This document shows, piece by piece, positions 6,261 to 55,400 of a stretch of DNA of 64,000 nucleotides (positions are counted from its first letter, which is position 1; each line of letters begins with the position of its first letter). Source of the stretch: an uncultured Planctomycetia bacterium (GTDB lineage Bacteria; Planctomycetota; UBA8108). A program made the translations under genes and the position numbers. The notes beneath the pieces were generated by a model, which was not told the DNA's origin, ran no database searches, and saw nothing but the letters and a program-made list of their open reading frames with translations. The stretch covers positions 35,045 through 99,044 of the forward strand of contig CAYMLL010000001.1 in the NCBI GenBank assembly GCA_964390645.1, given 5' to 3'.

Positions 6261-6409
6261 CCTTCGGCTCGCGATCGCGGGCGCGTTTCACGGTGACGGT
6301 GCGGCGCAGCTTCCACGAACGACGCAAGCTGGAGTAGACTCAACGTGGCTCGCCCTGACCGCCATCGTTTTCGAGGCCACTGATGCGTCCGACCCCGAGA
6401 CCTTTTTCG

Positions 6410-31951: not shown

Positions 31952-32941
31952 ATGAACCGCAACCGTCTTTCTGCCGTCGGCCTGCTCACCGCGCTCCCCC
32001 TTGTCGCGGTCACGCTGGTGGCGCAGGACAACCCCCCGTTCGTCCGCGCGGACGCGAACCTCGACGGTGGCAGCGATCTCAGCGACGGCGTCTATCTGCT
32101 CGGCTACCTCTTCCTCGAGGGTCCGGCGCCGGGGTGCGAGGACGCCGCCGATTTCAACGACTCCGGCCGGCTCGACATCAGCGACGCGAGCTTCCTCTTC
32201 AACTCGCTCTTTGTCGGCGGTCCGCCGGTTCCTCCCCCCTCGGGCGACTGCGGCGAGGATCCGACGGACGACGACCTGACCTGTCGGGAGACCGACTGCG
32301 AGGTCGTCGAGCCCGGGCCACCCGGCGGCTACCGGCACTTCCGCGACAACGTCGAGATCGAGGAGTCCGGCAACCGCATGGTCATCCGCTCCGACGGAGT
32401 GCCGGACCACCCGAGCCCCTACTTCCGCCGCAACGACCCCCGGCACGTGCCGCCACACCCCGCCATGCGCCTGAACCCGAATCGAATCGTGCCGCAGGAT
32501 CTCGTCTTTCGCATCCCCGCAGTCCCGACCGTCGCGGCGAGACCGACCGATACGCGTCTCGGCCCGATCGGGGTCGCCGTCAACGGCGTCGCCCTCTTCA
32601 ACCAGTACGCCGGCCCCGGTCAGCCACTCGACCGTGAGATCATCTCCTTCGACATTTACAACGGTCACCCGCAGCAGACCGGGCTGTACCACTACCACGT
32701 CGAGCCGACCTACCTGACAGTGGACGACTCCGGCGCGCTGATCGGCTACCTCCTCGACGGCTTTCCACTGTACGGGCCGACCGAGGAGGACGGCAGCAAC
32801 CCGACCGGTCTCGACCCGTGCAACGGCCACACGCACGCGACCGAGGACTACCCGGACGGCCTCTACCACTACCATGTCGTCGCGGTGCCGCCGTACCTCG
32901 TCGGCTGCTACAAGGGCCGGCCCGGCACCTTCACGAACTGA
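31952..32941 (+). CDS. Secreted protein: N-terminal dockerin-like pair + C-terminal YHYH domain
   Basis: The start is MNRNRLSAVGLLTALPLVAVTLVAQ. The dockerin pair reads ADANLDGGSDLSDGVYLLGYLFLEGPAPGC and DFNDSGRLDISDASFLFNSLFVGGPP. The C-terminal domain carries GLYHYHVEP and GLYHYHVVAVPP, the YHYH motif. Confidence 0.7.
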   Translation: MNRNRLSAVGLLTALPLVAVTLVAQDNPPFVRADANLDGGSDLSDGVYLLGYLFLEGPAPGCEDAADFNDSGRLDISDASFLFNSLFVGGPPVPPPSGDCGEDPTDDDLTCRETDCEVVEPGPPGGYRHFRDNVEIEESGNRMVIRSDGVPDHPSPYFRRNDPRHVPPHPAMRLNPNRIVPQDLVFRIPAVPTVAARPTDTRLGPIGVAVNGVALFNQYAGPGQPLDREIISFDIYNGHPQQTGLYHYHVEPTYLTVDDSGALIGYLLDGFPLYGPTEEDGSNPTGLDPCNGHTHATEDYPDGLYHYHVVAVPPYLVGCYKGRPGTFTN

Positions 32942-34391: not shown

Positions 34392-36027
34392 CCGGATCCG
34401 GCCGCCGCTGCTCCCCATCGTCCTCGTCGCCACGCTCACCACGTCGCTCACGGCGCAGGAAGACGCCCACTTCGTGCGCGGCGATGCGAACGTCGACGGC
34501 GGCGTCGACATCAGCGATGGCGTCTCGACGCTCCTGTTCCTGTTCGGCGGCGGCGAGGCACCGTCGTGCCACGACTCGGCCGACTCCAACGACACCGCGA
34601 CGGTCGACGTCAGCGACGCGATCTACCTCTTCAACTTCCTCTTCCTCGGGGGTGCGCAGCCGCCCGCGCCCTACCCCGACTGCGGCGCCGACCCATCCCC
34701 GGACGGTCCAGGCTGCAGACGCTTCGATCCCTGCGACGACGGGGAGCCGGCCGACCGACCCAACATCCTGCTCATCATCTCCGACGACCTCGGCGTCGAC
34801 TGGGCGTCCTGCTACGCGACCGGTCGAAACCTGCCGTCGACGCCGAATCTCGACCGGCTGTGCGCGACCGGAGTCACCTTCACGAACGCGTGGGCCAATC
34901 CGATCTGCTCGCCGACGCGCGCGACGATGCTCACCGGTCGCTACGCGTTCCGTACCGGTGTCGGCGACCAGATCGGCGGACGAACCGACGACGGTCTCGA
35001 CCCCGACGAGCTGACGATTCCCGACCTGCTCGACGCGGCGACGGAGCCCCGGTACACCCACGCGGCGATCGGCAAGTGGCACCTCGGAGGCGCCAACAAC
35101 GGCCGCAGGAACAGCCCCGGACGGCTCGGCTTCTCGCACTACTCGGGGAGTATCCGCGGGGCCATCGGCGACTACCACGAGTGGACGAAGACGGTCGATG
35201 GAAGCGACTCGGTCGTGACGCGCTACGCGACGACCGAGACCGTGGACGACGCCCTGCGCTGGATCGACGACCGGGACTCACCGTGGTTCCTCTGGCTGGC
35301 GTTCAACGCCCCTCACACGCCGTTCCACGCCCCCCCGGACGATCTCCACGGCGTCGTCGGCCTGACCGGCACGCCGGAGCACATCAACGCGAACCAGCGC
35401 GACTATTTCCGGGCCATGATCGAGGCGATGGACTCCGAGATAGGACGCCTGCTCGACTCGCTGGCGCCAGAGGTACGATCGCGAACCGACGTGATCTACA
35501 TCGGCGACAACGGCACCGCCGGAGGCGTCGCACGGCCGCCGCTGACTCGACAGACCGCCAAGGGCACCCTCTACCAGGGCGGCGTCCACGTGCCGCTCGT
35601 CGTGGCCGGACCGAGCGTGATCGACGGCGGCCGCAACGTCGACGCGCTGGCGTCCGCCACGGACATCTTCGCGACCGTGCTCGACCTCGCGAACGTCGAT
35701 CTCCTCGCAACGATCCCCGGCGACGTCCGCATCGACTCGCTCAGCCTCGTGCCGTACCTTCGAGGCGAGGAGCCGGCCACGCCCCGACGCCACGCGGTGG
35801 CCGAGCTCTTCGGCGCCAACACCCGCCCCGCCCGCGCCGGCAAGGCGATCCGTGGCGCACGCTACAAGCTCATCCGCCTCGAGCAGGGCACGGACGAGCT
35901 CTACGACCTCCTCGCCGACCCGCACGAGTCGAACAACCTGCTGTCGACAACACCGCTCGGCGACGACGAGCAGCAAGCCTACGACGAGCTCCGGGGCACT
36001 CTCGCCGATCTTCTCGAGACGCGCTGA
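34378..36027 (+). CDS. Arylsulfatase (formylglycine-dependent) with N-terminal dockerin-like pair
   Basis: The dockerin pair reads GDANVDGGVDISDGVSTLLFLFGGGEAPSC and DSNDTATVDVSDAIYLFNFLFLGGAQPP. The sulfatase core is ILLIISDDLG and CSPTRATMLTGRY (FGly motif C-x-P-x-R), plus GKWHLG. Confidence 0.85.
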   Translation: MKPSDRIRPPLLPIVLVATLTTSLTAQEDAHFVRGDANVDGGVDISDGVSTLLFLFGGGEAPSCHDSADSNDTATVDVSDAIYLFNFLFLGGAQPPAPYPDCGADPSPDGPGCRRFDPCDDGEPADRPNILLIISDDLGVDWASCYATGRNLPSTPNLDRLCATGVTFTNAWANPICSPTRATMLTGRYAFRTGVGDQIGGRTDDGLDPDELTIPDLLDAATEPRYTHAAIGKWHLGGANNGRRNSPGRLGFSHYSGSIRGAIGDYHEWTKTVDGSDSVVTRYATTETVDDALRWIDDRDSPWFLWLAFNAPHTPFHAPPDDLHGVVGLTGTPEHINANQRDYFRAMIEAMDSEIGRLLDSLAPEVRSRTDVIYIGDNGTAGGVARPPLTRQTAKGTLYQGGVHVPLVVAGPSVIDGGRNVDALASATDIFATVLDLANVDLLATIPGDVRIDSLSLVPYLRGEEPATPRRHAVAELFGANTRPARAGKAIRGARYKLIRLEQGTDELYDLLADPHESNNLLSTTPLGDDEQQAYDELRGTLADLLETR

Positions 36028-36253
36028 TCGGACAGCCTGCGGCGCCCGAAATGCTTTCAAGGGCATCTGCTGCTTGCCGACCGCCGCCGGGATGGAAAAG
36101 GCTCCTGGCCCCTTTTTCCCCGTGATAGACTGGATGCTGCGGTTGCCCCACGGTCTCCGGCAAGCACGACCACGACGGCGAGGGCCCCTTTCTTCGCCTG
36201 CCGTCGTGCGCTTCTTCGCCTGGCAAGGCAACGAAGACCCGACGAAGATCTGA

Positions 36254-39200
36254 ATGATGGGATCGACATCTCGAGTCGCGCTTGCCCTCGTCGCGCTCCT
36301 GCCCGGAGCCCGATCGCTCGCCGGTGACCCGACGCCCGACTACCTGCCACGCATCGACACCCAGGAGGAGTTCCTGGCGCTCTCCGTCCCTTTCGACGCC
36401 CTGGACCGAGGCGATCGCGTCACGAAGTTCTTGCTACCGCTCGACGCTGACGACGACGTCGGGCCGCTCTTCCACAACGTCGGTCGCTACCCGTTTCACC
36501 ACGAGTTCCTCGCCGCGGTCTTCTCGGACGAGTTTCCCGCTCTGACGATCGACCGCTACCTGGCGATGATCCAGAACCGCGACACTCGGCGCTTCTTCGC
36601 CGGACCGCTGATACGTCTCGAGACCGGCGACGGCCGGGTGTACGGCTTCGACATCATCGCGGCGCCGGACCAGCTGCCGACCCGGGAGGAGGCCCGACGC
36701 GTGCAGCAGGCGCTCGACCCGCTCTTCGGGCTCGGCCTCGTACACTACGCCCCGCTCGATCCGCGGGCGATCCAGGATGCGCGCGGGTGGCGCGACGTCG
36801 ACTTCCCGATCCACGTCGGCGACGGCGAGGAAGATCTCGTCTACGAGCCTTACACCCGGGGCGTCGGCTACGGCCGCATCCGGGTCCTCACACACGAGGA
36901 GTTCCTCGACGCGAACGAGAGCGGCCTCATCACGTGGCAGGACATGCTCGTTCTCGAGCGGGCGCCCACCGACATCGAGGGGGTCTTCGCCGGCGTCCTC
37001 ACCGCGGAGCGTCAGGGACCGCTGAGCCACGTGTCGATCCGCACGAACCGGCGCGGCACGCCGAACGCGTTCGTCGCGAACGCGCTCGCGGAACTCTCCG
37101 GACGCGACGGCCAGCTCGTACGGCTCGAGGTCCGCCAGACCGGCTGGGACGTCCGGCCCGCCGCCGCCGAGGAGGCGGAAGACTGGTGGGAAGCCAACCG
37201 GCCGAGCCTGCCGAGCGACCCGACGGTCGACGAGACCTACGCCCGGCTCGACAGCCTCGAGGATCTCGACCTCGACGGCGAGACGCCGCCCGTCTCGCGC
37301 TACGGCGGCAAGGCGACGAACCTCGCACGTCTGGGTCGCATCTTCGACGGCGAGTTCGAGGAGTACCGCGAGTCCGGCTTCGCGATCCCCATGCGTCACT
37401 ACCTCGAGTTCCTGCGCACGAACCACATCGAGGTCGACGGCGAGCGCCGGACCTACGAGGAGCACCTCGATGTGCTGCGAAGCTCACCGCGATTCGCCAG
37501 CGACTCGCGCTTTCGCTACGAGGCGCTGGCGACGTTCCGCCGCGAGGCTCGCGACAACGGAGACGTGTCGATCATCCTCCTTCTCGAGCTGATCCAACGC
37601 GTCGAGGAGATCTTCGGCAGCCGCGACACGATGGTCCGCTTCCGCTCCTCCTCGAACGTCGAGGACCTGCTCGAGTTCAACGGCGCGGGTCTCTACGACT
37701 CGACGTCCGCCTGCGCCGCGGACCACGATGACGACGACAACGAAGGACCGTCCCGGTGTGACGAGAACCGGCCGGGCGAGCGCACGATCGGCAGGGCGCT
37801 GAAGCGCGTGTGGACGAGCCTGTGGACCTTCCGGGCTCACGAGGAGCGCGCCTACTACCAGATTCCGCAGGACGATGTCGCCATGGGCATCCTCGTCACG
37901 CGCGCCTTTCTCGACGAGGAGGCGAACGGGGTCGCCTTCACCGGCAACCCGTCGAATCCCCGCGACCGACGCTACGTGGTGACCTCGCAGCAGGGCGAGA
38001 CGAGTGTCGTTCATCCCGATCCCGGCGTGCTGCCCGAGCAAGTCGCGATGATCGTCGACCGCGACAGCGGGCTGGTGCTGCGCGTGGATCGGTCGCAGCG
38101 GTCCAGCCTCGTCGAGGACGGCGTGGATGTCCTCTCGGACGCGAAGCTGGGCGAGCTCGCGAACGTCATGGCGAAGATCGATCGCGACATGCCGCTCGAT
38201 CTGGGAGGGCACTCACGGGATGAGGTCCTCTTCGATCTCGAGCTCAAGGTGGAAGCCGGCGGCGACCTGGCGATCAAGCAGGTGCGTCCCTTCCTCCTTT
38301 CACAGTCACCACCACAGACGCCGGGCTTTCGGCTGGAGATCCCTGACGACACCGTTCTTTGCGGCCTCTTTGTCGAGGGACGCCCGCCTCACGACGAGCT
38401 CCTGGCAAAGAGCCGACTGCGCCTGCGACCCGGGACGATCGAGCTCCCGACCGACGTCGACGTCTTCCTCGGTGACCTGATCGAGGAGATCGTCCGCGGC
38501 CCGGATCGCCGCCGCGCCGAGCCGACGGCGCCCGGCGTCTTCCACGTGACGACGAACGCGCGCGGAGACGGGACGGCCAGTCACACCTTTCGCTTCGAGC
38601 AGGACTTCACGATCGCCGGCGAGCCGCTCCACGTCGAGATCAACGGTCTCACCATGACGTCGAGCGACGGCGAGCCGGACGTACCCACGCTCGTTCTCGA
38701 CGAGGAGGCGATCACCCGGGATCTCTTCGTCGAGGCCATTCCGAGCTCCGAGGCGAGCCGCAAGATGGTCTACTCCTCGTGCACCTTCGGCTCGCTGCCG
38801 CCATGGGATGTGCGCACGACCTTCGCGGACGGCACGACGCTGCGCCTCACCGAACGATTCCGACCGGCGCTGGCGGGAACCGCTCCGGCGAGCGTCGTCC
38901 ACGCCGACGTCGAGATCGGTGGCGAGCAGCAGGAGACCGACGACTACTTCCGCCTCGTGTACACCGCTCTGCACCACAACTTCCACGTTCGATACTGGAT
39001 CGTCCTCGATCCTCCGGTCGCTCTTCCCGGTGTCGGGACCGTGCATGCGATCGATCTGCGGGAGCCCCAGAGCGACACCGGTCGTGCCGCGAGAGCCGAG
39101 TATCTGGGCGCCTCCTTCGAGCCGATCGGCGGGCCGCGTGTGGCAACCTACTGGAAAGGCCCTGCAGGAGACCGTCAGCCCGGCTTCCGGCGAGGCGACA

Positions 39201-39454
39201 CGAACGCCGACGACGGTGTCAACGTCTCCGACGTGGTCTTCCTGCTCGGCTGGCTCTTCCGGGCGACCGAGTCCCCCGCCTGCCCCGACGCCGGCGACTT
39301 CGACGACGACGGAGCAGCGGAGATCACGGACGCGATCCTCATCCTGTCGTTCCTCTTCCAGGGCGTCGACCTCTCCGCTCCCCCCGGCCCCTACCGCTGC
39401 GGCCCCGCCCCGCCGAACGACTTCCTCGACGACTGCGAACGCCCCTGCCCCTGA
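36254..39454 (+). CDS. Large secreted protein with PEP-utiliser / PPDK_N-like nucleotide-binding domain and C-terminal dockerin-like pair
   Basis: It has a signal peptide. The central region matches the PEP synthase/PPDK N-terminal domain: SRYGGKATNLARLGRIF, FAIPMRHYLEFL, MVRFRSSSNVEDLLEFNGAGLYDS, VAMGILVTRAFLDEEANGVAFTGNP, VVTSQQGETSVVHPDPG. The C-terminus has the pair GDTNADDGVNVSDVVFLLGWLF and DFDDDGAAEITDAILILSFLFQG. Confidence 0.7.
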   Translation: MMGSTSRVALALVALLPGARSLAGDPTPDYLPRIDTQEEFLALSVPFDALDRGDRVTKFLLPLDADDDVGPLFHNVGRYPFHHEFLAAVFSDEFPALTIDRYLAMIQNRDTRRFFAGPLIRLETGDGRVYGFDIIAAPDQLPTREEARRVQQALDPLFGLGLVHYAPLDPRAIQDARGWRDVDFPIHVGDGEEDLVYEPYTRGVGYGRIRVLTHEEFLDANESGLITWQDMLVLERAPTDIEGVFAGVLTAERQGPLSHVSIRTNRRGTPNAFVANALAELSGRDGQLVRLEVRQTGWDVRPAAAEEAEDWWEANRPSLPSDPTVDETYARLDSLEDLDLDGETPPVSRYGGKATNLARLGRIFDGEFEEYRESGFAIPMRHYLEFLRTNHIEVDGERRTYEEHLDVLRSSPRFASDSRFRYEALATFRREARDNGDVSIILLLELIQRVEEIFGSRDTMVRFRSSSNVEDLLEFNGAGLYDSTSACAADHDDDDNEGPSRCDENRPGERTIGRALKRVWTSLWTFRAHEERAYYQIPQDDVAMGILVTRAFLDEEANGVAFTGNPSNPRDRRYVVTSQQGETSVVHPDPGVLPEQVAMIVDRDSGLVLRVDRSQRSSLVEDGVDVLSDAKLGELANVMAKIDRDMPLDLGGHSRDEVLFDLELKVEAGGDLAIKQVRPFLLSQSPPQTPGFRLEIPDDTVLCGLFVEGRPPHDELLAKSRLRLRPGTIELPTDVDVFLGDLIEEIVRGPDRRRAEPTAPGVFHVTTNARGDGTASHTFRFEQDFTIAGEPLHVEINGLTMTSSDGEPDVPTLVLDEEAITRDLFVEAIPSSEASRKMVYSSCTFGSLPPWDVRTTFADGTTLRLTERFRPALAGTAPASVVHADVEIGGEQQETDDYFRLVYTALHHNFHVRYWIVLDPPVALPGVGTVHAIDLREPQSDTGRAARAEYLGASFEPIGGPRVATYWKGPAGDRQPGFRRGDTNADDGVNVSDVVFLLGWLFRATESPACPDAGDFDDDGAAEITDAILILSFLFQGVDLSAPPGPYRCGPAPPNDFLDDCERPCP

Positions 39455-39493
39455 GCCCGACCTCGGGCCCGGCGGTATTCGAGAGGGACCTCC

Positions 39494-39550
39494 CGGGTTT
39501 CGAAAGAGCTCTCGGGTTTCGAAAGAGCTCTCGGGTTTCGAAGGACCTGT
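39494..39550. repeat. 19-bp tandem repeat x3 (CGGGTTTCGAAAGAGCTCT), each unit with nested palindromes TTTCGAAA and AGAGCTCT
   Basis: Visible in sequence, in the convergent intergenic region 39455-39832. Confidence 0.7.
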
Positions 39551-39752
39551 CCCGGCGGCGTGGGGCCATCACGCCGGTCCGGTGCCTTCGAGAAAGCTCC
39601 CCACGGACCGCGTCAGGTGTCGCGAGGCTCCGTCCCGACCCTCGGAGGACCGCGAGGACTCCGGGTGGCTGAGCCACAGGTTCCGAAAACCGGCCGGACA
39701 GCGACCTGCCGCTCCTGTGACGGTGGGTGCGGCCCTGTCGAATCGCCTGTAA

Positions 39753-39812
39753 GCCGCCTCCCGTGAGCCGCCTCCCGTGAGCCGCCTCCCGTGAGCCGCC
39801 TCCCGTAAGCTA
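39753..39812. repeat. 15-bp tandem repeat x4 (GCCGCCTCCCGTGAG)
   Basis: Visible in sequence. It is non-coding and lies just 3' of the stop of the minus-strand CotH gene. Confidence 0.7.
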
Positions 39813-39832
39813 CCGCCTCCACGGCGAAGCGA

Positions 39833-42800
39833 TCACGACCTACAGACGTTCGCGCAGCCGTCGACGCGCACGCAGTCGCCGCTCGGCGGCGCCGGCCCTC
39901 CCTGAAAGAGGTAGTCGAGGAGGTAGATCACGTCGGTGATCGCGACCGAGCCGTCCGCATCGACGTCAAAGACGGCGCGGTTGCCCCCGTCCTCGAGATC
40001 CGCGCCGTCGCACGGCAGCTCGGGCGCGTCCGGCAGGAAGAGGCGACGCACCAGAGAGAACGCGTCGGACACGTCGAGGCGACCATCCTGGTTGCTGTCA
40101 CCGCTGCGCTGTCGACCGCCGAGGCCCGGGAAGCCCTCGTCCGACGCACCGGGCGAGCCGCCGAGGATCGAGCTCGGGCCCCAGTTGTCCGGGGTCGTCC
40201 AGGTCACACGCTCCGCGAGAAGATCGACGATGACCAGGGAGTCGCCGCCGCCGTCCGTGGTCGGATACCACTCGTCATCGTAGAGAAAGTCGTGGATCGG
40301 CTCCTCGAGGGATCCCCGCACGACGATGCGCTCCCCGAGGTTCTCGAGACGGCCGTCGAACTCGCCGGCGACAAAAATCCGTCCCACGTCGTAACGCTCG
40401 GCGAAGGCCTCGATGTTGTTGACGATGACCACGTACTCCCCCGGATCGAGAGTCGGATCGCCAGCGCTCGGAAACGTGAAGGAGATGCCGCCGCTGACCT
40501 CGATCCCCGCGAGCGGCACCGGCTCGGCGCCGACGTTCGTGAACTCGACGAACTCGAAGTCCTCGTCGTCGTAGGGGCCGCCGGGGGCGTCCGGCTCGGG
40601 GTGGTACATGACCTCCGAGACGACGATCGTCGGCAGCTCGTTCCAGTACGTCGCCCGGACCATCGGCGTCCAGTCGTTCGTGGAGTAGCGCCTCCGCACC
40701 TTGACCTGAGTGGTCTCCGTGACCGTGAAGGGGCCCGTGTACTGCACCGCGGAGGCCGAGGTAGCGCCGCCCGGAAGCCGCGGATCGCTGCCGTCCGTGG
40801 TGTAGAGCTTCGTACCGGAGCCCGTGATCGCCACCTCCATGCCCGGAAAGATCTGGCGGCTTCCCGGCGTGATCGTCGGTGGCTGCCGGAACTGACCGTC
40901 GAGCCAGTCCGCACGGGTACGCAGCCAGATCTTCAAGCGCGAGATCTCGCTGTTCCAGCCGTTGACCGATATCTGGTTCCACCTCGACGAGTCACGCCGC
41001 TGGGCATCCCGGATCTCTGCGGCCATCTGATCGATGACGCGGAGGATGTTGGTGTTGCTCAGCGGCGGCAGGCTGCTGTCGCCGTAGTAACCGTTCCCGG
41101 TATTGCTCGCGGAGTCGGTGCGAAACATGTGCCAGCGATCACGGTAAATCTGCAGGAAGTCCTGATCGTCGAAGAGCCGCTCCCACCACGGATAGTCGAA
41201 GAAGCGAGTCGCGTCACCGGTCCCGTTCATCGTCGTCGGGTTGTCATCGCGTCCGTCGCTCGAGTTCATCGATCGGTCGAAGTCCCAGATCGGTCCGAAC
41301 TCGATCTCGCCGAGACGGTTCTTGTAGAAGTAGGTGCTCAGACGAAGGGCGTCGACGTTCTTCGGCAGCACGTTGAGCATGTGATGATCCGCCCACGACT
41401 CCTCGTCGACGTACGGCCCGTAGCCGAGCGTATCGTGACGGAAGTTCGCGGCGTTCAGGGCGCTCGAGAAGGAGTTGAAGTAGTTACGGATCCAGGTCGC
41501 CTGGTACGAAGGGATGTCGTCCTCCTTCGGCTCGACATGGCGCAGGCTCCGCCCGGCGGCGCTGAAGCCGCTGTCGCCCGGATCGGCGCGGTCGATCTTC
41601 AGCATGTAGCCGCCGGAGATCTCCGGCTCGCTGTCGTGGCCCGGAAGCAGCTCCTCGATGTCGACGCGTGCCGGATCACGCTTGATCTTCTCCATCAGGC
41701 TGTAGATGCCGCGGTAGTCGCCGCTGTCGAGCGAGCCGCCACCGGAGTTGAAGTAAACTTCGACGAACCTCGACCTCGCCGCCCAGCGGCCGAGCTGTCT
41801 GCTGAGGTCGTAAATCAGCGGGTTACGAAGATGAGCGCGGTCGAAATTGTAGGCTGCGTAGAGAATCCAGTCCGACTCCCTCGGCAGGCCGAATGGACGC
41901 AGCGCCTCGTCCTCGTTGTTCTCGTCCCAGAACTCGAAGGTGTAGCTGACCTTGTCGCGTCCACCGGTGCTCGAGCCTCGGGTCTTGATGCCGAAACGAT
42001 GGGCGAGCGTCGGATCCTCCGAGAAGCTCGTTCGACCGTCGATCGGCTCGTAGATCGCCATGAAGGCACCCGAGAAGGTCCCGGACGACGGGCGACCCCG
42101 GCCGTAATTGTCGATGACCACGACAGGGATGGACGAACGAACGTTGCGCACGCTCGACGCGAGAAAGATGTAGTTGGCGCTGACGACCTGGCTGACATCG
42201 CCGTCGTCCTCGAAGACGCGGGCACGCAGCCACATCGACGTGGAGACGTCGATGGAGCCCGTGTAGCGGGTCGACCCCTGGGTCGGAAGATCACCGTTCG
42301 TCGTGTAGCGAATCGTCGCACCCGGCGAGTCCGTGGTGATGATCACCGACGTGGCGGAGCTGAGCACGCGGCTGGTGGGCGAGATCTGCGGCGGCAGCGC
42401 GATGCCGCTGACGCCCGGCAAGTTCCCGGCACCGGGCGACGGGTCCGGAAAGAACAGAACCGTGTCTCGATCGAGCTCGCCACTCGAAAAGCCCTCGAGC
42501 TCCGGCATGACGACAAAATCCGAGCTCCCCGGGTTGTCGTTGAGCCCGTGGATCGCCAGGACGTTCGTCGCTCCGGCGGCGACGGTGCCGCCGGGGACGG
42601 TGCCGGAGAACTCCTCGAAGTTCACCGCGTCACCGTCGTCGTGAAGGCCCGTCGCCTCCGAGTTCCATCTCAGGCTGGCAACGCTCGGCGCGTTCGCTGA
42701 CGCGATCGGCTCGCCGTTCACGAAGGCCGAGAACCCGTCGTCGTACTTCATCCGCAGCACGAAACCGGTGATGTTCGAGCCGGCCGGCGCACTGAACGGA

Positions 42801-43489
42801 ACGCGGACGTAGCACGTCGTGTTCCGGTTGTTCATGTCGTTCTCGACGTCGAGATTGATCAGCGAACGATACGTCGCGTTCTCGTCGTAGCCGACGCCGG
42901 TCTCCCCGGAGGTCCAGGACGCGTCGTTGAAGTCGATCTGGCGCCACCCGGTGCCCTCGTTGCCGTTCTGCGGCACGCGCGCGCGCGCCGGTGCCTCGGA
43001 GTCGATCAGCTGCACGACCTCCGAGTTCTGCGCGAGGCCGTAAGAGAAGCCGGGCACCTGCTGGGGGAAGGGCGCGAACTCGTGCTTCACGGTGGCCCCA
43101 TCCGGCTCGACCAGCGCCAGGTACTCCCCGAGGCTCGAGAGCTTGAAATTCGCGTGCAGGGGCCTTCCCGGCACGCGCCGGTCCTTGTCGGAGCAGAAGA
43201 CCACGAGAAAGCTCCCCGGCGACAGCGTGACCGCAGGAAAGCGCCACTTCCGCAGGTCGAGCACGTCGTCGCTCAGGTACCAGCCACCGAGTTCGCAGGG
43301 AGTCACACCACCGTTGAAGATCTCGACGAAATCCGGCGTGTCGCCGTCTTCGTCGCGGATGGCTCCATCGTTGACCGCCATCAGCTCGGTGATCAACAGG
43401 TCGTCCGCCGGGGCAGCAGCCGTGATGAGGCCGACCCACAGCGCCAGCCCGCCCGGAATCCACCCGCGATGTCCGTTCTTCGCCGTCAT
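39833..43489 (-). CDS. Giant secreted LTD / CotH kinase-like / LTD protein with C-terminal dockerin-like pair (1,219 aa)
   Basis: ORF 39833..43552, with the start at MTAKNGHRGWIPGGLALWVGLITAAAPA (43489). The N-terminal LTD is LLITELMAVNDG...DFVEIFNGGVTPCELGGWYLSD. The CotH core is YTFEFWDENNE...YNFDRAHLRNPLIYDLSRQLG...GIYSLMEKIKRD...GYMLKIDR...GPIWDFDRS. A second LTD reads VVSEVMYHPEP...FEFVEFTNVGAEPVPLAGIEVSGG. The dockerin pair reads GDSNQDGRLDVSDAFSLVRRLF and DVDADGSVAITDVIYLLDYLFQGG. Confidence 0.8.
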   Translation of the reverse strand: MTAKNGHRGWIPGGLALWVGLITAAAPADDLLITELMAVNDGAIRDEDGDTPDFVEIFNGGVTPCELGGWYLSDDVLDLRKWRFPAVTLSPGSFLVVFCSDKDRRVPGRPLHANFKLSSLGEYLALVEPDGATVKHEFAPFPQQVPGFSYGLAQNSEVVQLIDSEAPARARVPQNGNEGTGWRQIDFNDASWTSGETGVGYDENATYRSLINLDVENDMNNRNTTCYVRVPFSAPAGSNITGFVLRMKYDDGFSAFVNGEPIASANAPSVASLRWNSEATGLHDDGDAVNFEEFSGTVPGGTVAAGATNVLAIHGLNDNPGSSDFVVMPELEGFSSGELDRDTVLFFPDPSPGAGNLPGVSGIALPPQISPTSRVLSSATSVIITTDSPGATIRYTTNGDLPTQGSTRYTGSIDVSTSMWLRARVFEDDGDVSQVVSANYIFLASSVRNVRSSIPVVVIDNYGRGRPSSGTFSGAFMAIYEPIDGRTSFSEDPTLAHRFGIKTRGSSTGGRDKVSYTFEFWDENNEDEALRPFGLPRESDWILYAAYNFDRAHLRNPLIYDLSRQLGRWAARSRFVEVYFNSGGGSLDSGDYRGIYSLMEKIKRDPARVDIEELLPGHDSEPEISGGYMLKIDRADPGDSGFSAAGRSLRHVEPKEDDIPSYQATWIRNYFNSFSSALNAANFRHDTLGYGPYVDEESWADHHMLNVLPKNVDALRLSTYFYKNRLGEIEFGPIWDFDRSMNSSDGRDDNPTTMNGTGDATRFFDYPWWERLFDDQDFLQIYRDRWHMFRTDSASNTGNGYYGDSSLPPLSNTNILRVIDQMAAEIRDAQRRDSSRWNQISVNGWNSEISRLKIWLRTRADWLDGQFRQPPTITPGSRQIFPGMEVAITGSGTKLYTTDGSDPRLPGGATSASAVQYTGPFTVTETTQVKVRRRYSTNDWTPMVRATYWNELPTIVVSEVMYHPEPDAPGGPYDDEDFEFVEFTNVGAEPVPLAGIEVSGGISFTFPSAGDPTLDPGEYVVIVNNIEAFAERYDVGRIFVAGEFDGRLENLGERIVVRGSLEEPIHDFLYDDEWYPTTDGGGDSLVIVDLLAERVTWTTPDNWGPSSILGGSPGASDEGFPGLGGRQRSGDSNQDGRLDVSDAFSLVRRLFLPDAPELPCDGADLEDGGNRAVFDVDADGSVAITDVIYLLDYLFQGGPAPPSGDCVRVDGCANVCRS

Positions 43490-43695
43490 CGTACCTGTGT
43501 TGCCGCTGACGATTGCGCACTCGACTCCGAAAACCCTGCCCGAACGAGGCACTGACCCTGAAAGAGCTCCCGGATTACTGTTGACGATGCATCAACAATA
43601 ACCCCGGCTGGAGCGGCGCTGCAGAGTTTTGTCAGAAGGGGCTCGGGAAAATAGTTTCCCGACGCGCGGCACGAGACCGTACCATCCTCGCCGCC

Positions 43696-44560
43696 ATGAG
43701 CCGAGAGCCCCGTATCCTTGTCGTCGGCAGCGTCAACATGGACGTCGTCATCCGCACCGGACGCTCGCCGCGCGGCGGCGAGACCGTCGTCGGTGACGAC
43801 CTGCGGCTCGTCCCAGGCGGCAAGGGCGCCAACCAGGCGGTCGCCGTGACACGCCTCGGCGGCCGCGCCGGGTTCGTCGGACGTGTGGGCGACGACCCCT
43901 GGGGCACGGAGCTCGCATCCGGACTCCACGAGAACGGCGTCGACACCGCCGGGCTCGGCGTCGACGCGGATCGCCCGACCGGCACGGCGACGATCGTCGT
44001 CGAGGCCGACGGCGAGAACCGGATCATCCTCGTCGGCGGCGCCAACGACGCGGTCTCCCCGGAGCACGTCGATGCGGCGCTCGACGACGCCGGCAAGCCC
44101 GCCGGGATGAAGGACATCGACGCGTTGCTCCTGCAGCTCGAGATCCCGCTCGAGACGGTCTGCCACGCGATCCGTCGCGGCAAGGAGCGCGGCATCGCGG
44201 TGGTTCTCGATGCGGGCCCGCCACAGGCCGTCCCCCTCGAGCGCCTCAGGGACCTGACCGTCCTGACGCCCAACGAATCGGAGACCGAGGCCCTGACCGG
44301 CATCTCCGCTGCCGACGACGACGGGGCCGACCGGGCCGCCCGCCGGCTCGCCGAAGCCACCGGCGCCGAACACGTGGTCCTCAAGCTCGGCGCTCGCGGT
44401 GCGATGATCCGCGACGGCGAGAAGCACCGCGTCGTGCCTGCCTCGGGTGTCGACGCCGTCGACACCACCGCCGCCCCCGACACCATAACCGCCGCCCGGA
44501 CCGACGAGCAAGCCACCGGCCGACCCTGGTGGGTCTGGGGCGCGGGGGGGGGGGGGTGGG
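43696..44560 (+). CDS. rbsK: Ribokinase (PfkB family), 3' end disrupted by a poly-G tract
   Basis: Matching stretches are ILVVGSVNMDVV, GGKGANQAVA, NESE and VVLKLGARGA. VDAVDTTAAPD corresponds to the conserved DTTAAGD. After this the reading frame runs into GGGGGGGGGGGG at 44535-44590 and becomes nonsense. Confidence 0.7.
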
Positions 44561-44656
44561 CCCCCCGGGGGCGGGCGCGCGGCCCCCCACGAAGCTCGGG
44601 GCCCAGCCGTCGTTACCGACACGCGCCGAGGTCGAGTCCTTTCTCGACGCACGCAC

Positions 44657-45427
44657 ATGACCGGCGACGTCCTTTTTACCCATATCGAGCGCCTGCAGGC
44701 CGGCACGCCGTGGGGCACGGTCCTGGACGCCGGCACCGGACACGACTCGCTGCGCTGGATCTCGACCCTCGAGACGGAGCGCTGGACCGCCATCACCGCA
44801 AACGATCCACGGGCGCGGCGCCTTTCGAAGGAGTTCTGCAAGTCGTCGCGCCCGGACGACCGGGTAATCGCCGGCAACTGGACCGATCCGAGCCTCCTGC
44901 ACGGCGAGGTCTTCGACGTCGTGCTCGCCGACTACCTGGTCGGGGCGATCGATCGCTTCGCGCCGTACTTCCAGTACGGGTTCTTTCGACGACTGCGTCC
45001 CCATGTCCGCGACCGTCTCTACGTGGTCGGGCTCGAGCCGCACGACGAGAGCGACACGCCCCCCTCCGGACAGGTCGTCCTGGAGATCGCCCGGCTCCGC
45101 GACGCTTGCATCCTCCACGCCGGCCACCGCTGCCACCGCGAATATCCCCTCGAGTGGACGATCACGCAGCTCGAGGACTGCGGCTTCACGGTCGAGGACG
45201 CCAGGAGCTTCCCGATCATCTACGGGCCGAAGTTCATCAACGGGCAACTCGACGTCTGCGTCGAGAAGCTCGACCACGTCCACGACCCGGTGCTCGTCAA
45301 GGGGCTACGGCATCGCATCGACGACCTGAGGCGCCGGGCTCTCGCGGTGCACGAGAGCCTCGGGGGGCTTCGGTTCGGGACGGATTACGTGGTGTACGCA
45401 CGACCAGCGCTCGAGGATCCGGACTAG
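44657..45427 (+). CDS. Hypothetical protein (possible SAM-dependent methyltransferase-like fold)
   Basis: It has a VLDAGTGHDSLRW glycine-rich motif and an acidic-hydrophobic DVVLADYLV. The assignment is weak. The ORF is clean and the codon usage is consistent. Confidence 0.45.
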   Translation: MTGDVLFTHIERLQAGTPWGTVLDAGTGHDSLRWISTLETERWTAITANDPRARRLSKEFCKSSRPDDRVIAGNWTDPSLLHGEVFDVVLADYLVGAIDRFAPYFQYGFFRRLRPHVRDRLYVVGLEPHDESDTPPSGQVVLEIARLRDACILHAGHRCHREYPLEWTITQLEDCGFTVEDARSFPIIYGPKFINGQLDVCVEKLDHVHDPVLVKGLRHRIDDLRRRALAVHESLGGLRFGTDYVVYARPALEDPD

Positions 45428-47676
45428 GGCTCCCATCGCGGCTCCACCTTCAGCAGGTGCCGCACGAAGAAGTCCCGCCGCCGCCTCTTCCCGTAGCGGC
45501 TCTCCCCGATGCCGTGGCCGGCCCCGGGGAAGACCACGAGGTCGAAATCCTTGTCGGCCTTGATCAACGCGTCGACGACCTGCATCGTCGACGCCGGATC
45601 GACGTTGCGATCGAGCTCTCCGACGGTGAGAAGGAGCTTGCCCTCGAGCTTGCGGGCGTTGGTGACGTTCGACTGCTCCGCGTAATGATCTCCGATCGGC
45701 CAGCCCATCCACAGCTCGTTCCACCAGACCTTGTCCATGCGATTGTCGTGACAGCCACAGTCCGCCACGCCGACGTGGTAGAACTCAGGGTGCGCGAGCA
45801 GCGCCCGCAGCGCGCTCTGGCCTCCCGCGGAGCCACCGTAGATGCCGACGCGTGAGACGTCCATGTACGGATACCGCTTCGCCGCCGCGCGAATCCACAG
45901 CTTGCGATCCGGGAAGCCCGAGTCGCCGAGGTTCTTCCAGCACACATCGTGGAAGGCCTTCGAGCGGTTCGACGTCCCCATGCCGTCAATCTGCACGACG
46001 ATGAAGCCGAGCTCCGCGATCGACTGAGCGCTGAAATGACGGCCGAAGCTCTTCGGCACGAACGAGCCGTGCGGGCCGGCGTATATCTTCTCGATGATCG
46101 GGTACTTGCGCGACGGGTCGAAGCTCGTCGGCCGCAGGATCACCCCGTAGATGTCCGTGCGTCCGTCTCGCCCTTTCGCGACGAAACGCTCGGGAGTCTT
46201 CCATCCGGTCTCGAGGAGCGCGCTCATGTCCGCCTTCTCGAGCCCGCAGACAAGCTTGCCGTCCATCGTTCGTCGGATCTCGGTGACAGGAGGCATGTCG
46301 ACACGTGAGAAGCGATCGACGAAATACTCTCCCGCCGGCGACAGCTCGATCGAGTGCGTGCCGTCCCCTTCCGTCAGCACGACAAGGCTGCCGCCGTCGA
46401 ATCCGACACGACAGAAGTGGACGTAGTACGGATCCTGATCCGGATAGATGCCGCTCGCCTGGAACCAAATCTCGCGCTTCTCGTCATCGACGCGCAGCAC
46501 CCGACGCACGACCCATTCGCCGTTCGTGATCGGATTCTTCAAGGCGCCCGTCTTCGCGTCGAAGAGATAAAGATGGTTCCAGCCATCGCGCTCCGACATC
46601 CAGATGATCTCGCCCGTGTCGTCGATGAAGCGGGAGTACTGCTTGTGCGAGTAGTCGACGAAGGTCTCGCTTTCCTCGTTGACGAGCGCGCTGGCCTCAC
46701 CGGACGTCGCATCGACCGCGACGATTCGCAACACCTGGTGGCCACGCTGGTTGTACACGAAGGTGAAGCGGCTGCCGTCTCTATCCCAACGCAGCCCGCG
46801 GATGCTCCACGGGTTCGAGAAGAGGTCGTCACCGACCGAGACCTCCTTCTTCGTCTCGACGTCGAATAGCCGGGGGCTCGTGACATCAAGCTCGTCGCCA
46901 GGCTTGTGATAGTTGTGCGAGTGCAGCTTCGGCTGAGTCCGGTCCTTGGGCGCCGACTCGATCAGGTACACCGTGTGATCGGACGCCTTCTTGGTTCGCA
47001 AGGCGACGATCTTCTTCGAGTCCGGCGACCAGTAGACGTTCGCGTCGTAGTGGTGCCCTTCTCCCACCTCCGCGAGAAGGTGCTCCTCCTTCGACTCGAG
47101 ATCTCGCAGCCAGAGGCTCCTGTCCTTCGTGAAGGTCTGCCACCTCTTGTCGGGCGACCGATCCCCCCGCGACGATCGTCCGCGGCCGCCGCGACGACCG
47201 CGCCCGTCCATACGACGCCCCTTCTGGCCGGCCTTCGGCTTCTCGTGCTCCGTGATCTCGTAGCTGTCGAGATCGCACTTCCAACCCTTGCCGTACGCTT
47301 CGATGAGAATCACCGAGCCGTCCTGGACCGGATCGAGACGCTCGATCGGCAGTCGCCGCGCATCGATCGACTTTCCCGCAGCGTTCGTCAACCCCGCGGC
47401 CAGCCGAGCGTGATCGAACGCCAGACGCTTTTCGGCTCTCGCGGCATCGACGAGGACGATCTCCCATCCGTCCACGGTCTGCCGTCGATACCAGCCACGG
47501 GCTCCATCGCCCAGCCAGCGGAACTCGACACGTTCGTTGAGCACCTTGTCACGCGTGATCTCACCGAGACGTTCCGCGCGCTCGTAGTCAGCACGTGTGC
47601 CCTGGGCAAGAAGCCCGGAAACGGACATGATCACCCAGAAGCAGACGAGACCGAGCGAAAGCGAAGCTTGTAGCAT
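45424..47676 (-). CDS. S9-family serine peptidase (dipeptidyl-peptidase IV-like; beta-propeller + alpha/beta hydrolase)
   Basis: It has a signal peptide with a GGAGGG RBS 11 nt upstream of the ATG at 47676. The N-terminal half is a DPP-IV-like propeller. The catalytic domain carries GIYGGSAGGQSAL (Ser), a later Asp in GELDRNVD, and His in GAGHGI. Confidence 0.85.
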   Translation of the reverse strand: MLQASLSLGLVCFWVIMSVSGLLAQGTRADYERAERLGEITRDKVLNERVEFRWLGDGARGWYRRQTVDGWEIVLVDAARAEKRLAFDHARLAAGLTNAAGKSIDARRLPIERLDPVQDGSVILIEAYGKGWKCDLDSYEITEHEKPKAGQKGRRMDGRGRRGGRGRSSRGDRSPDKRWQTFTKDRSLWLRDLESKEEHLLAEVGEGHHYDANVYWSPDSKKIVALRTKKASDHTVYLIESAPKDRTQPKLHSHNYHKPGDELDVTSPRLFDVETKKEVSVGDDLFSNPWSIRGLRWDRDGSRFTFVYNQRGHQVLRIVAVDATSGEASALVNEESETFVDYSHKQYSRFIDDTGEIIWMSERDGWNHLYLFDAKTGALKNPITNGEWVVRRVLRVDDEKREIWFQASGIYPDQDPYYVHFCRVGFDGGSLVVLTEGDGTHSIELSPAGEYFVDRFSRVDMPPVTEIRRTMDGKLVCGLEKADMSALLETGWKTPERFVAKGRDGRTDIYGVILRPTSFDPSRKYPIIEKIYAGPHGSFVPKSFGRHFSAQSIAELGFIVVQIDGMGTSNRSKAFHDVCWKNLGDSGFPDRKLWIRAAAKRYPYMDVSRVGIYGGSAGGQSALRALLAHPEFYHVGVADCGCHDNRMDKVWWNELWMGWPIGDHYAEQSNVTNARKLEGKLLLTVGELDRNVDPASTMQVVDALIKADKDFDLVVFPGAGHGIGESRYGKRRRRDFFVRHLLKVEPRWEP

Positions 47677-52406: not shown

Positions 52407-55400
52407 TCAGAGCCCGTCGACACACTCGAGCGGCCCGTCGCCGTCCGGGTCCTCGCCAGGGTCGGGGTAGGGAGCTGCGGGCGGCGGGCCCTGCTGAAAC
52501 AGGTGCGCGAGGATGCGCACGGCGTCGGTGAGATCGACGGTCTCGTCGTTGTCGGCGTCCCCGGCGTCTCGACAGTTCGACTCGAGCCCCGAGAAGAGAT
52601 GGCGCAGGATGGCGACCGGATCGCTGATGTCGACCACGCCATCGAGGTTGAAGTCGCCGCGGATGAACCGCGGAGGCAGTCCCAGCGCGGTGAACTCGAG
52701 ACGGTTGGAGTCGCCGCTGCCGAAATTGCGCGCGGTGATCGTCGCCGGGCCGGCGTCGACGAGCGGCACCTCGGCGACCAGCACGCCGGGATCGGCGCCG
52801 GGGTCATGGGTGACGAGCGGCGACAGCACACCCCCGAAGAAGACCTCGATGCCCGCGTGGAGCTCGCTGCCGCGAATGGTCACGCTGTCTCCCGGACGTG
52901 CCTCGACAGGCTCCACCGTCGTGAGCACCGGCGGCGGCAAGCCGAAGGTCGTCGTCACCGTGATCGAATCCGTCGCCGTGACCTCCCCGCTCGTCGCCAC
53001 CCCGAGTAGCCGAACGTCGTTCTCCCCGGAGACGAGCGGCACGGTGATGCGCCATCGCGACAGACTAGACCACGTGATCTGCGAACGCTCCTCGAGCCCG
53101 TCGACGAGAATCGACTGCACGTCGATGCCTGCGTCGCCCTCGAGGTCTACCGTCGGAGTATCGAGCGCCAGATCCGCACCACCGTTTGTCGTGATGCGAA
53201 AGGCCACCGGGGCCGGCAGCCGACCCCGCACAAAGCGACCGCGCTGGCCGATGTAGTTGAGGATCCCCCCGAAGTTCCTGCCAGTCTTGGTACCGTAGTG
53301 CTCGGTCCAGTGACGCATGTAGTCCGTGTTGTAGACCCGGTCGATGATGTCATCGAGGTGGCCGTAGAACCTTCGAAGGTTGCCGGGCAGCTCGATGATC
53401 CGACGCAGATTCTGGTCACCGTAGAGGGATGCGCCCGTGCCCCGCGTGAACGAGAAGTCGGCGTCCCACATCATGACCAGCACCTTGCCGTCTGACGGAC
53501 GCACGTAGTGCATGTTGTTGTGGTTGTTGCCAAAGGTGTAGCTGTCGTTGATGCCGGTCAGCGAGTAGACGGCGAAGACGCGCATCCACTCGTCGACATC
53601 CATGGTCGCCTCGGTGGCGGCATCCAGCTGCGAACGCGGAGCGCTGAACGCCTTCGACATGCCGATGAACTGCCGGTAGTCATCACGGGAGCGATTGTTG
53701 CGGATCAGGAAGTTCCAGCGGTAGACCTCCTTGTCGTCACCCCAGTCGCGAATGTCCGCGCCGATGACCCCGTCCGGCAGCGGGATCTTGTAGCCGTTCC
53801 CGTCGGCGGTCGTCGGGTGATAGATGAGCTCGAGCTTGAAGAGAGTACCGTCCCGCCCGTTCTCGAACGCGGACTCGAGAAAGACGTCGTTGTACCGTGC
53901 CATGAGAAGGAGCGCATAGCTGGTGTGCTGCCGACGCGGCGCGATGACACGAACGAGATCGTCGTACATCGCCGGGATACCGCCCGCGTAGTTCGCCGTA
54001 TGCTTGACGAGGATCTCGTCCTGCGACTGGATCGGCACGAGCCCGGACCACCCACCGGAGCGGTCCATAGCGATGCTGCGATGCACACCTCGAAACAGGT
54101 GGTCGGCGGGAAAACGGATGTTGAAGCTGACACGGTTGGTGTCGGGCCGACCGCGCTCGCTGCCGCGCAGACGCACGCCAGCGTCGTAGAACACCTCCTC
54201 TTCATTGTAGACGACCGTTGTCCCCACCGGATCGTTCGACATCAGCTCGATCGAGGCGTAGAGGCGTGATATGTCGGCCGGGGTCATGATGATCCGGACG
54301 TTGTGGACGGAGCCGAGCCGAGCCTGCCCGTCGTTCGTCCGGTAGAGTGCCCTCGAGTCACGGCCGCCGTCGGGATAGGTCGACGATGCACCGAGCCCGT
54401 CCTCCGCCTCGACATAAAACTGCACCGTACGCGATGACGACTGGCCGGGTATCGTGCCCCGGTAGCGGCCTGCGGCGAGGCTCATCGAAGCGCTGCGCCA
54501 GGCCCCTCCCTCGACGGAGTACCGGAGCTGCACGCTATCGACGCCGTCGGGATCATCGACGCCAACGCTGACAACGACCGGCTCTCCAGAGGCCGGAACC
54601 ACAGGAGCATGCATCATGCCGTCGTAGGTCGGGCCGATGTTGGCCTGGCGCCGGGAGTTCTCCGCACCCGGCGTTCCCGCGCGCTCGGAGACCGTCACCA
54701 GCGTCGTTCGTGGACAGCGGTTGAAATAGAGCCGCGTGTGCACCTGGTTCGAGCCGACGACCCACCTGGCACGAAACGAGATCTCGTACGTACGACCGTT
54801 GGTGACGCCGATGTTGTTCGCGAGCGTCCGCTCGACGTGATTGTGCATGTGCTCGGTCGCGCCGGTTGCAACGAGACGCAGCACCCGATTGCCCGGGTCA
54901 TCGGGATCCGTGATGACCTCACTGTGGCGATGCGTGCCCAGAAAACGCCATCCGGAGCTACCGCTCGCAAAGCTGCCGTTCTGGATGAGCTGGCGCTCGG
55001 CGCCGCCGGGATTCTCGATGACGCTGATGTCGTCGACCAGCACCTCGCCGCCGTCCAGAAGTCCGAGGCAGAAGTCTCGCCACCGTGTCGGGCCTATGTT
55101 GGCCCTCGCGGGCTGCGTGTAGACGTACGTCGTCCACTGCGTCTTGTCGCTCTCGTCGCTGGCGGCCCAGACCTCGGGACGCGAGTTGTCGGCGTCGGGG
55201 TCGCGCAGCTCGATGCTCGCGCCGCCTCCATCAGCGGCGCCCGGCCACGGCTGGCGGTCGTGGTAGCGCACGACGTCGGCCACGTTGCCGTTCCGATCCT
55301 CGAGGACGAGTCGGTCGCTGCGCCCGGACAGGTTGCCCTCGAAGTCCCCGACGATCGGGATGTCGGGGTGGAGCCCCTCGAGGAAGACCCGGTCACCGGC

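Follow-up and report, generated by a model that had tools for sequence, protein, structure and literature searches.

A dockerin-tagged, apparently exported planctomycetal protein with a probable histidine-swivel dikinase core in glucan, water dikinase order

Characterised dikinases, namely phosphoenolpyruvate (PEP) synthase (PEPS), pyruvate, phosphate dikinase (PPDK), glucan, water dikinase (GWD) and its relative PWD, rifampin phosphotransferase (RPH) and HpeHI, act where ATP is plentiful, in the cytoplasm or in the plastid stroma. The locus described here raises the question of what a protein with the nucleotide-binding domain of these enzymes might do outside the cytoplasm. It lies in a 64,000-nt stretch of DNA (the window; contig CAYMLL010000001.1 of assembly GCA_964390645.1, 66% GC) from an uncultured Planctomycetia bacterium and encodes a 1066-residue protein, the target, for which an initial annotation had proposed a secreted, dockerin-tagged, stand-alone PPDK_N domain lacking both the phospho-histidine swivel and the PEP-binding domain. 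Our analysis leads us to a different proposal, namely that the target is probably an enzyme of the histidine-swivel dikinase superfamily that is exported by the Sec route, stabilised by disulfides, tagged with a dockerin and built in the domain order of GWD. Because a catalytic His domain is most likely present N-terminal to the ATP domain on the same polypeptide, we regard the target as, most likely, a phosphotransfer enzyme that is complete but has its domains in a permuted order, rather than as a protein that only binds ATP.

This proposal starts from the domain composition of the target, the conservation of its catalytic residues and its hallmarks of export. From the N terminus, the protein consists of a signal peptide, a family-specific N-domain, a probable phospho-His domain containing His259, an ATP-grasp domain, an orphan beta-domain and a dockerin (Table 1), and an AlphaFold2 (AF2) model built on a 47-sequence alignment reached a mean pLDDT of 87.7 and a pTM of 0.76. 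Its GC content by codon position (0.72/0.46/0.87), with a third-position value of 0.87, is what one expects for a genuine gene where the window has 66% GC, and a protein on a JGI metagenome contig (P0001) is identical to it.

The ATP-grasp domain and a probable phospho-histidine domain

The PPDK_N domain that had been recognised from its motifs was recovered by profile search, as Pfam PF01326 matched aa 349-680 of the target (model positions 3-309 of 328, E = 2.6e-16, 60.3 bits against a cut-off of 27) and was also detected in distant family members. The GGKAxNL, SSA-x-ED-like and pre-GNP motifs correspond to RYGGKATNL (349-357), RFRSSSNVED (462-471) and GVAFTGNP (559-566). The predicted structure likewise bears out the proposed fold of the RPH and PEPS N-domains: the best Foldseek match in the PDB was RPH (5hv1, E = 1.7e-14), followed by Neisseria PEP synthase (2ols, E = 3e-12) and the stand-alone ATP subunit HpeI (9goj, E = 1.7e-9), and the isolated ATP domain of RPH (5hv6) gave a template modelling (TM) score of 0.70-0.75 to the target model. 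In an hhalign comparison with residues 18-341 of Escherichia coli PpsA, the ATP-domain profile aligned over 294 columns (E = 2.5e-5), with G-G-K, R-S-S..E-D, W-A-S-L, D-x-E and Q-x-R-P all in register. We take the GGK, R-S-S..E-D, D-x-E and Q-x-R-P motifs, as in the structures of PPDK and PEPS, to be those that contact ATP and Mg.

Far from being substituted, the nucleotide-binding residues are near-invariant among the 240 family sequences over which conservation was counted (per-site totals of about 215-234). K353 is present in 231/234 and R464 in 219/222 sequences, E663, Q676 and R678 are each found in 214/215, and at position 661 Asp occurs in 203 of 215 sequences and Glu in the other 12. 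To judge from its sequence, the ATP-grasp domain of the target is therefore intact, and its original annotation as a nucleotide-binding domain is supported. The acidic loop bracketed by C487 and C502 is an insertion at which PpsA is gapped; both cysteines occur in 216 sequences, and three giant relatives (L075, P0185 and P0189) have lost the loop altogether.

The swivel domain that had been considered missing is probably located upstream of the ATP domain, where family members carry the motif P-x-DIEGV-x-GVLTAERQGPLSHVSIRTNRRGTPNAF and where the motif LSHVSIRTNRRGTPNAF of the target holds His259. This residue is invariant in the 47-sequence alignment and is a His in 235/238 aligned relatives; the three members in which it is replaced, P0036 (Asn), P0134 (Arg) and P0223 (Leu), may be pseudoenzyme paralogs within an expansion of the family. 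In the AF2 model, His259 starts a helix (259-267) that follows a strand (247-250) and a loop, giving the strand-loop-His-helix-strand arrangement expected of such a domain.

Four independent comparisons, each of them statistically weak, align on the catalytic His. The Pfam family GWD1_pHisD (PF22973) matched aa 242-302 with an E value of 0.026 for the full protein and 0.0055 for the fragment, and it was the top Pfam family in 20 of 24 members (best E = 1.2e-4), all below the 27-bit cut-off. The only PDB match of the N-terminal profile was the PPDK His domain 2fm4 (E = 0.32), with P-E-DIEG and T-S-H-A-A in common. With hhalign, His259 was placed on His421 of E. coli PpsA (E = 0.043), which we take to be the catalytic histidine of that PEP synthase, and His was again placed on His when five E. 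coli phospho-His domains (PpsA, PtsI, PtsP, FryA and PtsA) were used (E = 0.027). In addition, a model of aa 25-345 (pLDDT 88.4) matched the MccF/LdcA C-domain, AF0055, the CPS small-subunit N-domain, RraA and aconitase X with a probability of 0.99-1.0 and E values of about 0.008, and we take these, from the SCOP classification, to share the swivelling beta/beta/alpha fold. On these grounds we consider it likely that a functional phospho-His domain is present at aa ~206-303. The homology of this region to known His domains is something that we infer from sub-threshold statistics and do not claim as proven, because the comparisons with the canonical family PF00391 and with the E. coli phospho-His domains are weak.

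The other half of the original claim of missing domains stands, as Pfam and PDB searches revealed no PEP/pyruvate-binding TIM barrel in the target and PF02896 was unmatched in the Pfam scan. What the phosphate might be transferred to could instead be decided by the N-domain, a mixed alpha/beta region of ~180 aa modelled mostly at pLDDT >85, which is never missing where the His and ATP domains occur, even in those proteins of Omnitrophota and Kiritimatiellae that have no C-domain. This candidate acceptor-binding domain appears more likely to be the site of phosphate transfer, with the orphan beta-domain (invariant Y898, Y903, H908 and N909) as an accessory binder, because it is always attached to the core, has invariant residues (K58, H82, R109, R112, Y165 and Y200 in the 47-sequence alignment) and takes the place that the central domain has in GWD1. 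The C-terminal domain, for which AF2 predicts ~24 strands at a pLDDT of ~90, is absent from the Omnitrophota and Kiritimatiellae cores. At one locus (L064), the same beta-domain forms a separate protein of 352 aa that begins with a signal peptide; its gene (2637-3695, plus strand) lies directly upstream of a full-length family gene (3865-6903).

Export and the dockerin module

Several hallmarks agree with the original view that the target is exported. Its N terminus, MMGSTSRVALALVALLPGARSLA followed by GD, combines an n-region with Arg7, an h-region of ~12 residues (VALALVALLPGA) that contains a Pro, and a predicted cleavage site, and the target has no other transmembrane-like hydrophobic segment of 19 residues. 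Signal peptides were judged by a simple heuristic (basic n-region plus hydrophobic core), which 92 of 106 Met-starting relatives pass, and in short forms of the family the conserved xDYL start of the N-domain directly follows predicted A-x-A-like cleavage sites. A Tat signal was ruled out, since the n-region lacks an RR motif.

The cysteines point in the same direction. The target has exactly eight, and the pairs 487/502, 703/843 and 1010/1049 covary across the family: C703 and C843 are both present in 183 sequences, both absent from 10 and discordant in 5, while C1010 and C1049 are both present in 158 and discordant in 2. At the sequence level, such covariation is the mark of disulfides, and hence of a compartment that is oxidising. 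Moreover, relatives carry FG-GAP/VCBS (in a form of ~1800 aa), LTD, CHB_HEX_C_1, Fn3_assoc, beta-helix, Lcl_C, BNR and TSP3 modules, accessories that are typical of surface proteins.

The dockerin tag, too, was upheld. Two EF-hand-like loop-helix repeats, as in Ca-binding type I dockerins, D982-x-N-x-D-x-G-x-N-x-x-D993 and D1015-x-D-x-D-x-x-x-E-x-x-D1026, are accompanied by AF2 helices at 991-1003 and 1024-1036. The single target sequence scores below the Pfam dockerin cut-off (15.1 against 22.9 bits), whereas the family profile matches solved dockerins in the PDB with E values of 1e-6 to 1e-3 and Foldseek aligned the module with dockerin 4uyq_B (TM score 0.73, rmsd 1.8 Å). A hidden Markov model of aa 972-1066 found this ~90-aa dockerin-plus-cysteine module in seven other proteins of the window (E = 1e-12 to 1e-28), either just past the signal peptide or at the C terminus. 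Three of these are CotH proteins, and the others are the adjacent sulfatase, a YHYH protein, a 3-keto-disaccharide-hydrolase/PKD protein and an unknown protein of 377 aa. Because it is shared so widely, the tag is not special to the target; it seems to serve the exported proteins of the source organism more generally, for docking or for sorting, and it places the target in a set of co-docked exported proteins, several of which are glycan related.

The three proteins with CotH kinase domains (27796-30003, 39833-43552 and 52407-58319, all on the minus strand) lie within 31 kb, and all combine LTD with the dockerin module; one adds CHB_HEX_C_1/Fn3_assoc and another LamG and CBM_4_9. LTD, CHB_HEX_C_1 and Fn3_assoc are thus accessories common to these proteins and to relatives of the target. 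The initial annotation had linked the target to the CotH kinases as a hint at ATP-dependent chemistry outside the cytoplasm. The link itself gains from the common module and accessories, whereas the extracytoplasmic chemistry, which would need a source of ATP, remains an inference.

The family, the known dikinases and the surrounding genes

A full-length search yielded 647 relatives among the scored candidates, the best 120 of which all show at least 86% query coverage and 43-60% identity. Among GTDB species representatives, at least 567 encoding stretches were found, mostly in metagenome-assembled genomes (MAGs) of Planctomycetota and some in Verrucomicrobiales, Omnitrophota and Kiritimatiellae. 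Every close relative is from a MAG of Planctomycetota. A profile of the N- and His domains retrieved 318 clusters (50% identity) at E <= 1e-30 and 1129 at E <= 1e-10. The family is therefore a large and uncharacterised one of the Planctomycetota-Verrucomicrobiota-Chlamydiota (PVC) group, with about 300-1100 clusters at 50% identity, most of them from Planctomycetota MAGs. Source annotations of the relatives are limited to "hypothetical" or "PEP/pyruvate-binding domain-containing", and in the open-access literature we found no description of the family or of secreted dikinases.

Its invariant core consists of the N-domain, the His domain and the ATP domain, while the C-terminal beta-domain and the dockerin are dispensable; the core also sits inside giant proteins of 2600-6400 aa (Table 1). 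Paralogs are frequent. One MAG of 9,179,496 bp (OZ244999.1) contributes at least 26 to the best 120 matches (loci L007-L071), partly in tandem, 43-48% identical to the query and of the ~1800-aa FG-GAP form, and several loci hold more than one family open reading frame (ORF), with four at L012, three at L039 and two each at L049, L011 and L041. Across the 75 loci whose neighbourhoods were compared, the sole large neighbour cluster consists of antisense shadow ORFs inside the family gene. A CotH gene lies beside family genes at a few loci (L001, L049, L038 and L011); where genomes have many genes of either kind, this is no clear excess over chance.

Among known dikinases, potato GWD1 (StGWD1) has an acceptor-side central domain, a His domain, an extra helix or linker and an ATP-binding domain (PMC13553574). 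The target carries its probable His domain (~206-303), helix (305-315) and ATP domain (346-682) in the same order, its His-domain motif is closest to Pfam GWD1_pHisD, and the chemistry expected by analogy would be ATP + acceptor-OH + H2O -> AMP + acceptor-phosphate + Pi via a phospho-His. Unlike GWD and PWD, it lacks CBM45, CBM20 and a large central domain of alpha-helices, having instead the ~180-aa alpha/beta N-domain, which shows no sequence or fold match to GWD, and it adds a C-terminal beta-domain, a dockerin, a predicted signal peptide and predicted disulfides in a bacterial protein of the PVC group. GWD is a plastid stromal enzyme of plants and algae.

With PpsA and PPDK the target shares a homologous ATP-grasp domain, with nucleotide and Mg motifs aligned to PpsA 18-341, and a His motif that can be aligned with His421 of PpsA and with the central domain of PPDK. 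It differs from them in its permuted order, with the His domain ahead of the ATP domain, in the lack of the PEP/pyruvate TIM barrel and in the Cys-bracketed acidic insertion, and it scores 25 bits against a cut-off of 598 for the NCBIfam PEPS equivalog. RPH-Lm (5hv1/5fbs), the best structural match of the ATP-grasp domain, is likewise a dikinase that phosphorylates the hydroxyl of a non-metabolic acceptor, but RPH is cytoplasmic, runs from the ATP-grasp through the rifampin-binding to a C-terminal His domain, and its NCBIfam model NF041857 gives the target 16.7 bits against a cut-off of 999. Phenylphosphate synthase is a two-component dikinase with a stand-alone PPDK_N subunit. The two-component kinase HpeHI, which has been characterised, includes HpeI (9goj) as such a subunit (PMC12167813). 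Both systems illustrate that the ATP-binding domain need not keep one fixed place beside the His and acceptor domains but may be detached from them or arranged differently; in contrast to the target, they are cytoplasmic, use small aromatic acceptors and are made of subunits that are polypeptides of their own.

A comparison of a different kind is offered by the "planctosome" proposed for freshwater Planctomycetes, with dockerin-bearing CotH and other non-cellulosomal dockerin proteins (PMC6461901). As in the set to which the target belongs, an ATP-utilising fold follows a signal peptide and is combined with a dockerin tag and LTD/CHB_HEX_C_1/Fn3_assoc accessories, although the catalytic folds are unrelated, being protein-kinase-like in CotH and ATP-grasp plus a probable His swivel in the target. 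To our knowledge, no function has been demonstrated in Planctomycetota for a dockerin-tagged CotH protein or for a protein of the target type.

The window as a whole is planctomycetal in character, with PSCyt1/PSCyt2/PSD1 and DUF1501 proteins, the sulfatase and LTD-CotH proteins. A promoter and terminator scan of positions 35800-40000 called nothing. A hairpin-like sequence, GGAAAAGG...CCTTTTTCC, lies at 36088-36119, ~60 nt past the stop codon of the sulfatase gene and ~135 nt ahead of the start codon of the target, and might be a terminator dividing the two genes even though the consensus scan did not call it. The two longest ORFs of the window, 52407-58319 (minus strand) and 57950-62794 (plus strand), overlap divergently by ~370 bp at their 5' ends, and at least one true start codon probably lies downstream of the mechanical call. 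At 43696-45855 (plus strand), a mechanical ORF of 719 aa is probably over-extended or frameshifted, because its PfkB carbohydrate-kinase domain covers only aa 6-269 and an ORF with good codon bias in a different frame (44657-45427) overlaps its 3' part. Positions 1331-4677 (plus strand) encode an NfeD-like membrane protein followed by a flotillin-like FloA protein (PF12127, E = 6e-133), the usual NfeD-flotillin pair, which has no relation to the target.

Table 1. Positions of the target, its domains, the copies of its dockerin module and the large relatives that carry its core
Feature	Sequence	Position	Strand	Remarks
Target ORF	window	36254..39454	+	1066 aa plus stop codon; from ORF listing and translation
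Predicted Sec signal peptide	window	36254..36322	+	aa 1-23; cleavage after S-L-A, then G
N-terminal alpha/beta domain, family-specific	window	36326..36868	+	aa 25 to about 205; candidate acceptor-binding domain
Probable phospho-histidine (swivel) domain	window	36869..37162	+	aa about 206-303
His259 codon, candidate phosphocarrier	window	37028..37030	+	near-invariant His
Helix and linker, His to ATP domain	window	37163..37288	+	aa 304-345; AF2 helix 305-315, then coil
ATP-grasp nucleotide-binding domain (PPDK_N)	window	37289..38299	+	aa 346-682
Cys-bracketed acidic loop C487-AADHDDDDNEGPSR-C502	window	37712..37759	+	within ATP-grasp domain
All-beta C-terminal orphan domain	window	38300..39178	+	aa 683-975
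Dockerin-like module with Cys-rich tail	window	39179..39451	+	aa 976-1066
Module copy	window	34456-34734	+	
Module copy	window	32030-32299	+	
Module copy	window	9886-10173	-	
Module copy	window	52422-52673	-	
Module copy	window	29683-29949	-	
Module copy	window	62513-62752	+	
Module copy	window	39884-40108	-	
Giant carrier of core	L075	779-11632		Kiritimatiellae, 3617 aa
Giant carrier of core	P0185			3336 aa
Giant carrier of core	P0189			6419 aa
Giant carrier of core	P0181			2633 aa
Giant carrier of core	P0182			2982 aa
Core within multidomain surface proteins	L068, L069			Omnitrophota, about 1887 aa

ATP supply, alternative explanations and significance

Drawn by analogy with GWD, PEPS and RPH (PMC13553574 and general knowledge), catalysis by the target would begin with the binding of Mg-ATP by the ATP-grasp domain, after which His259 on the mobile domain would attack the beta-phosphate with release of AMP and Pi. 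The His domain would then pivot to the acceptor site and pass its phosphate to an acceptor hydroxyl, the acceptor being held by the N-domain and/or the C-terminal beta-domain, while the dockerin would tether the enzyme to a scaffold at the cell surface or in the periplasm, alongside those carriers of the module that are sulfatase, CotH or glycan-processing proteins. ATP would have to be available at that location. An extracytoplasmic polymer such as a glycan is a tentative candidate for the acceptor, favoured because of the diversification of paralogs, the company of sulfatase, carbohydrate-binding module (CBM) and disaccharide-hydrolase proteins, and the GWD-like layout. In a wider and equally speculative view, Planctomycetota and other PVC bacteria might deploy a large and diversified family of surface-docked or periplasmic His-swivel dikinases, along with dockerin-tagged CotH kinases, and spend ATP beyond the cytoplasm to phosphorylate extracellular polymers. 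The reverse reaction, in which ATP would be made from phosphorylated polymers, was ruled out on energetic grounds, since by our own reasoning phosphomonoesters cannot drive AMP to ATP.

A number of observations weigh against the proposal of an exported dikinase. We know of no source of ATP in the periplasm or outside the cell. For the His domain, PF22973 scores at most ~17 bits on the target against its cut-off of 27, the canonical PEP-utilizers family PF00391 gave weak matches in 2 of 24 members and was undetected in the target, the hhalign probabilities are <2% at E values of 0.03-0.04, and in a column-permutation test of the comparison with the E. coli phospho-His domains 5 of 200 shuffles reached the observed score. 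The swivel-fold match belongs to the whole aa 25-345 model and so may not cover aa 206-303, and the top fold matches (MccF, AF0055, CPS small subunit and RraA) are not solved phospho-His domains. On the acceptor side, the N-domain has no Pfam or PDB sequence match to any known binding domain, a profile of the C-domain (26 members) gave zero matches in Pfam and PDB, and no CBM was matched in Pfam at E <= 1 in the target or in 24 N-terminal fragments. The signal peptides were called by the heuristic and not by SignalP. Finally, no neighbour gene is conserved across the 75 loci, and real neighbour clusters span at most 10 loci, so that no partner gene was found.

The shortage of ATP would be solved if the target were an effector or toxin, exported and displayed on the surface and then delivered into a prey, host or competitor cell whose cytoplasmic ATP fuels the phosphorylation of some molecule there. 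The divergent paralog expansions, with at least 26 members at 43-48% identity to the query in one 9.18-Mb genome, resemble families under diversifying pressure, the core occurs inside giant surface proteins of Kiritimatiellae and also of Omnitrophota, for which a link to predation has been reported (bioRxiv 10.1101/2023.11.21.568195). However, no element for translocation, toxin delivery or immunity is seen in the protein or conserved beside its gene, the covariation of three disulfide pairs points to a function in an oxidising compartment, and the same tag is found on ordinary degradative enzymes such as the sulfatase, so that we regard this explanation as unlikely.

It is rather improbable that the target is, as originally proposed, an exported stand-alone nucleotide-binding domain without a phosphocarrier His, serving as an ATP/AMP binder, as a sensor or, as in two-subunit dikinases, together with a partner. 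PF00391 and the PEP-binding barrel are undetected, the statistics of the His domain are weak, and stand-alone PPDK_N subunits do exist, for example HpeI (9goj) of the two-component kinase HpeHI (PMC12167813). Yet the near-invariant His lies in a conserved upstream motif that four independent comparisons align on the catalytic His, and the N-, His and ATP domains always occur together as one core across phyla. Less probable again is an idle scaffold or binding pseudoenzyme, in which the dikinase fold would have been reused for a phosphorylated or nucleotide-like ligand at the cell surface. Such a role would be in line with ATP being unexpected outside the cytoplasm and with the three paralogs that lack the His (P0036 Asn, P0134 Arg and P0223 Leu), but conservation of the ATP-grasp motifs and of the His above 98% over hundreds of sequences that are ~45% identical is rare in pseudoenzymes. 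A cytoplasmic enzyme whose N-terminal hydrophobic stretch is an uncleaved anchor or a start-codon artefact would be the simplest way to supply ATP and is highly improbable, given that the h-region is just ~12 residues long with a Pro and no transmembrane-like 19-mer, that Cys pairs are conserved, that a Ca-binding dockerin is present and FG-GAP/LTD/TSP3 partners occur in relatives, and that signal peptides are kept at the N terminus of short and long forms alike.

The reading of the target as an exported dikinase thus stays the preferred one, with a dikinase core that appears to be complete, has its domains in a GWD-like order, is apparently exported and dockerin tagged, and belongs to a large PVC family. 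If these proteins do their work at their apparent location, the cell envelope of PVC bacteria would depend on a source of energy that has not been described, and polymer phosphorylation would be a candidate step in the turnover of organic matter in marine waters and groundwater. Should polymers indeed be phosphorylated, this could, for example, loosen recalcitrant glycans as GWD does with starch, and an unrecognised extracytoplasmic supply of ATP would be implied. Even if the localisation is wrong, a GWD-like order in a bacterial family of about 300-1100 clusters helps to compare the swivel mechanism of dikinases, and the family may be a source of new acceptor specificities.

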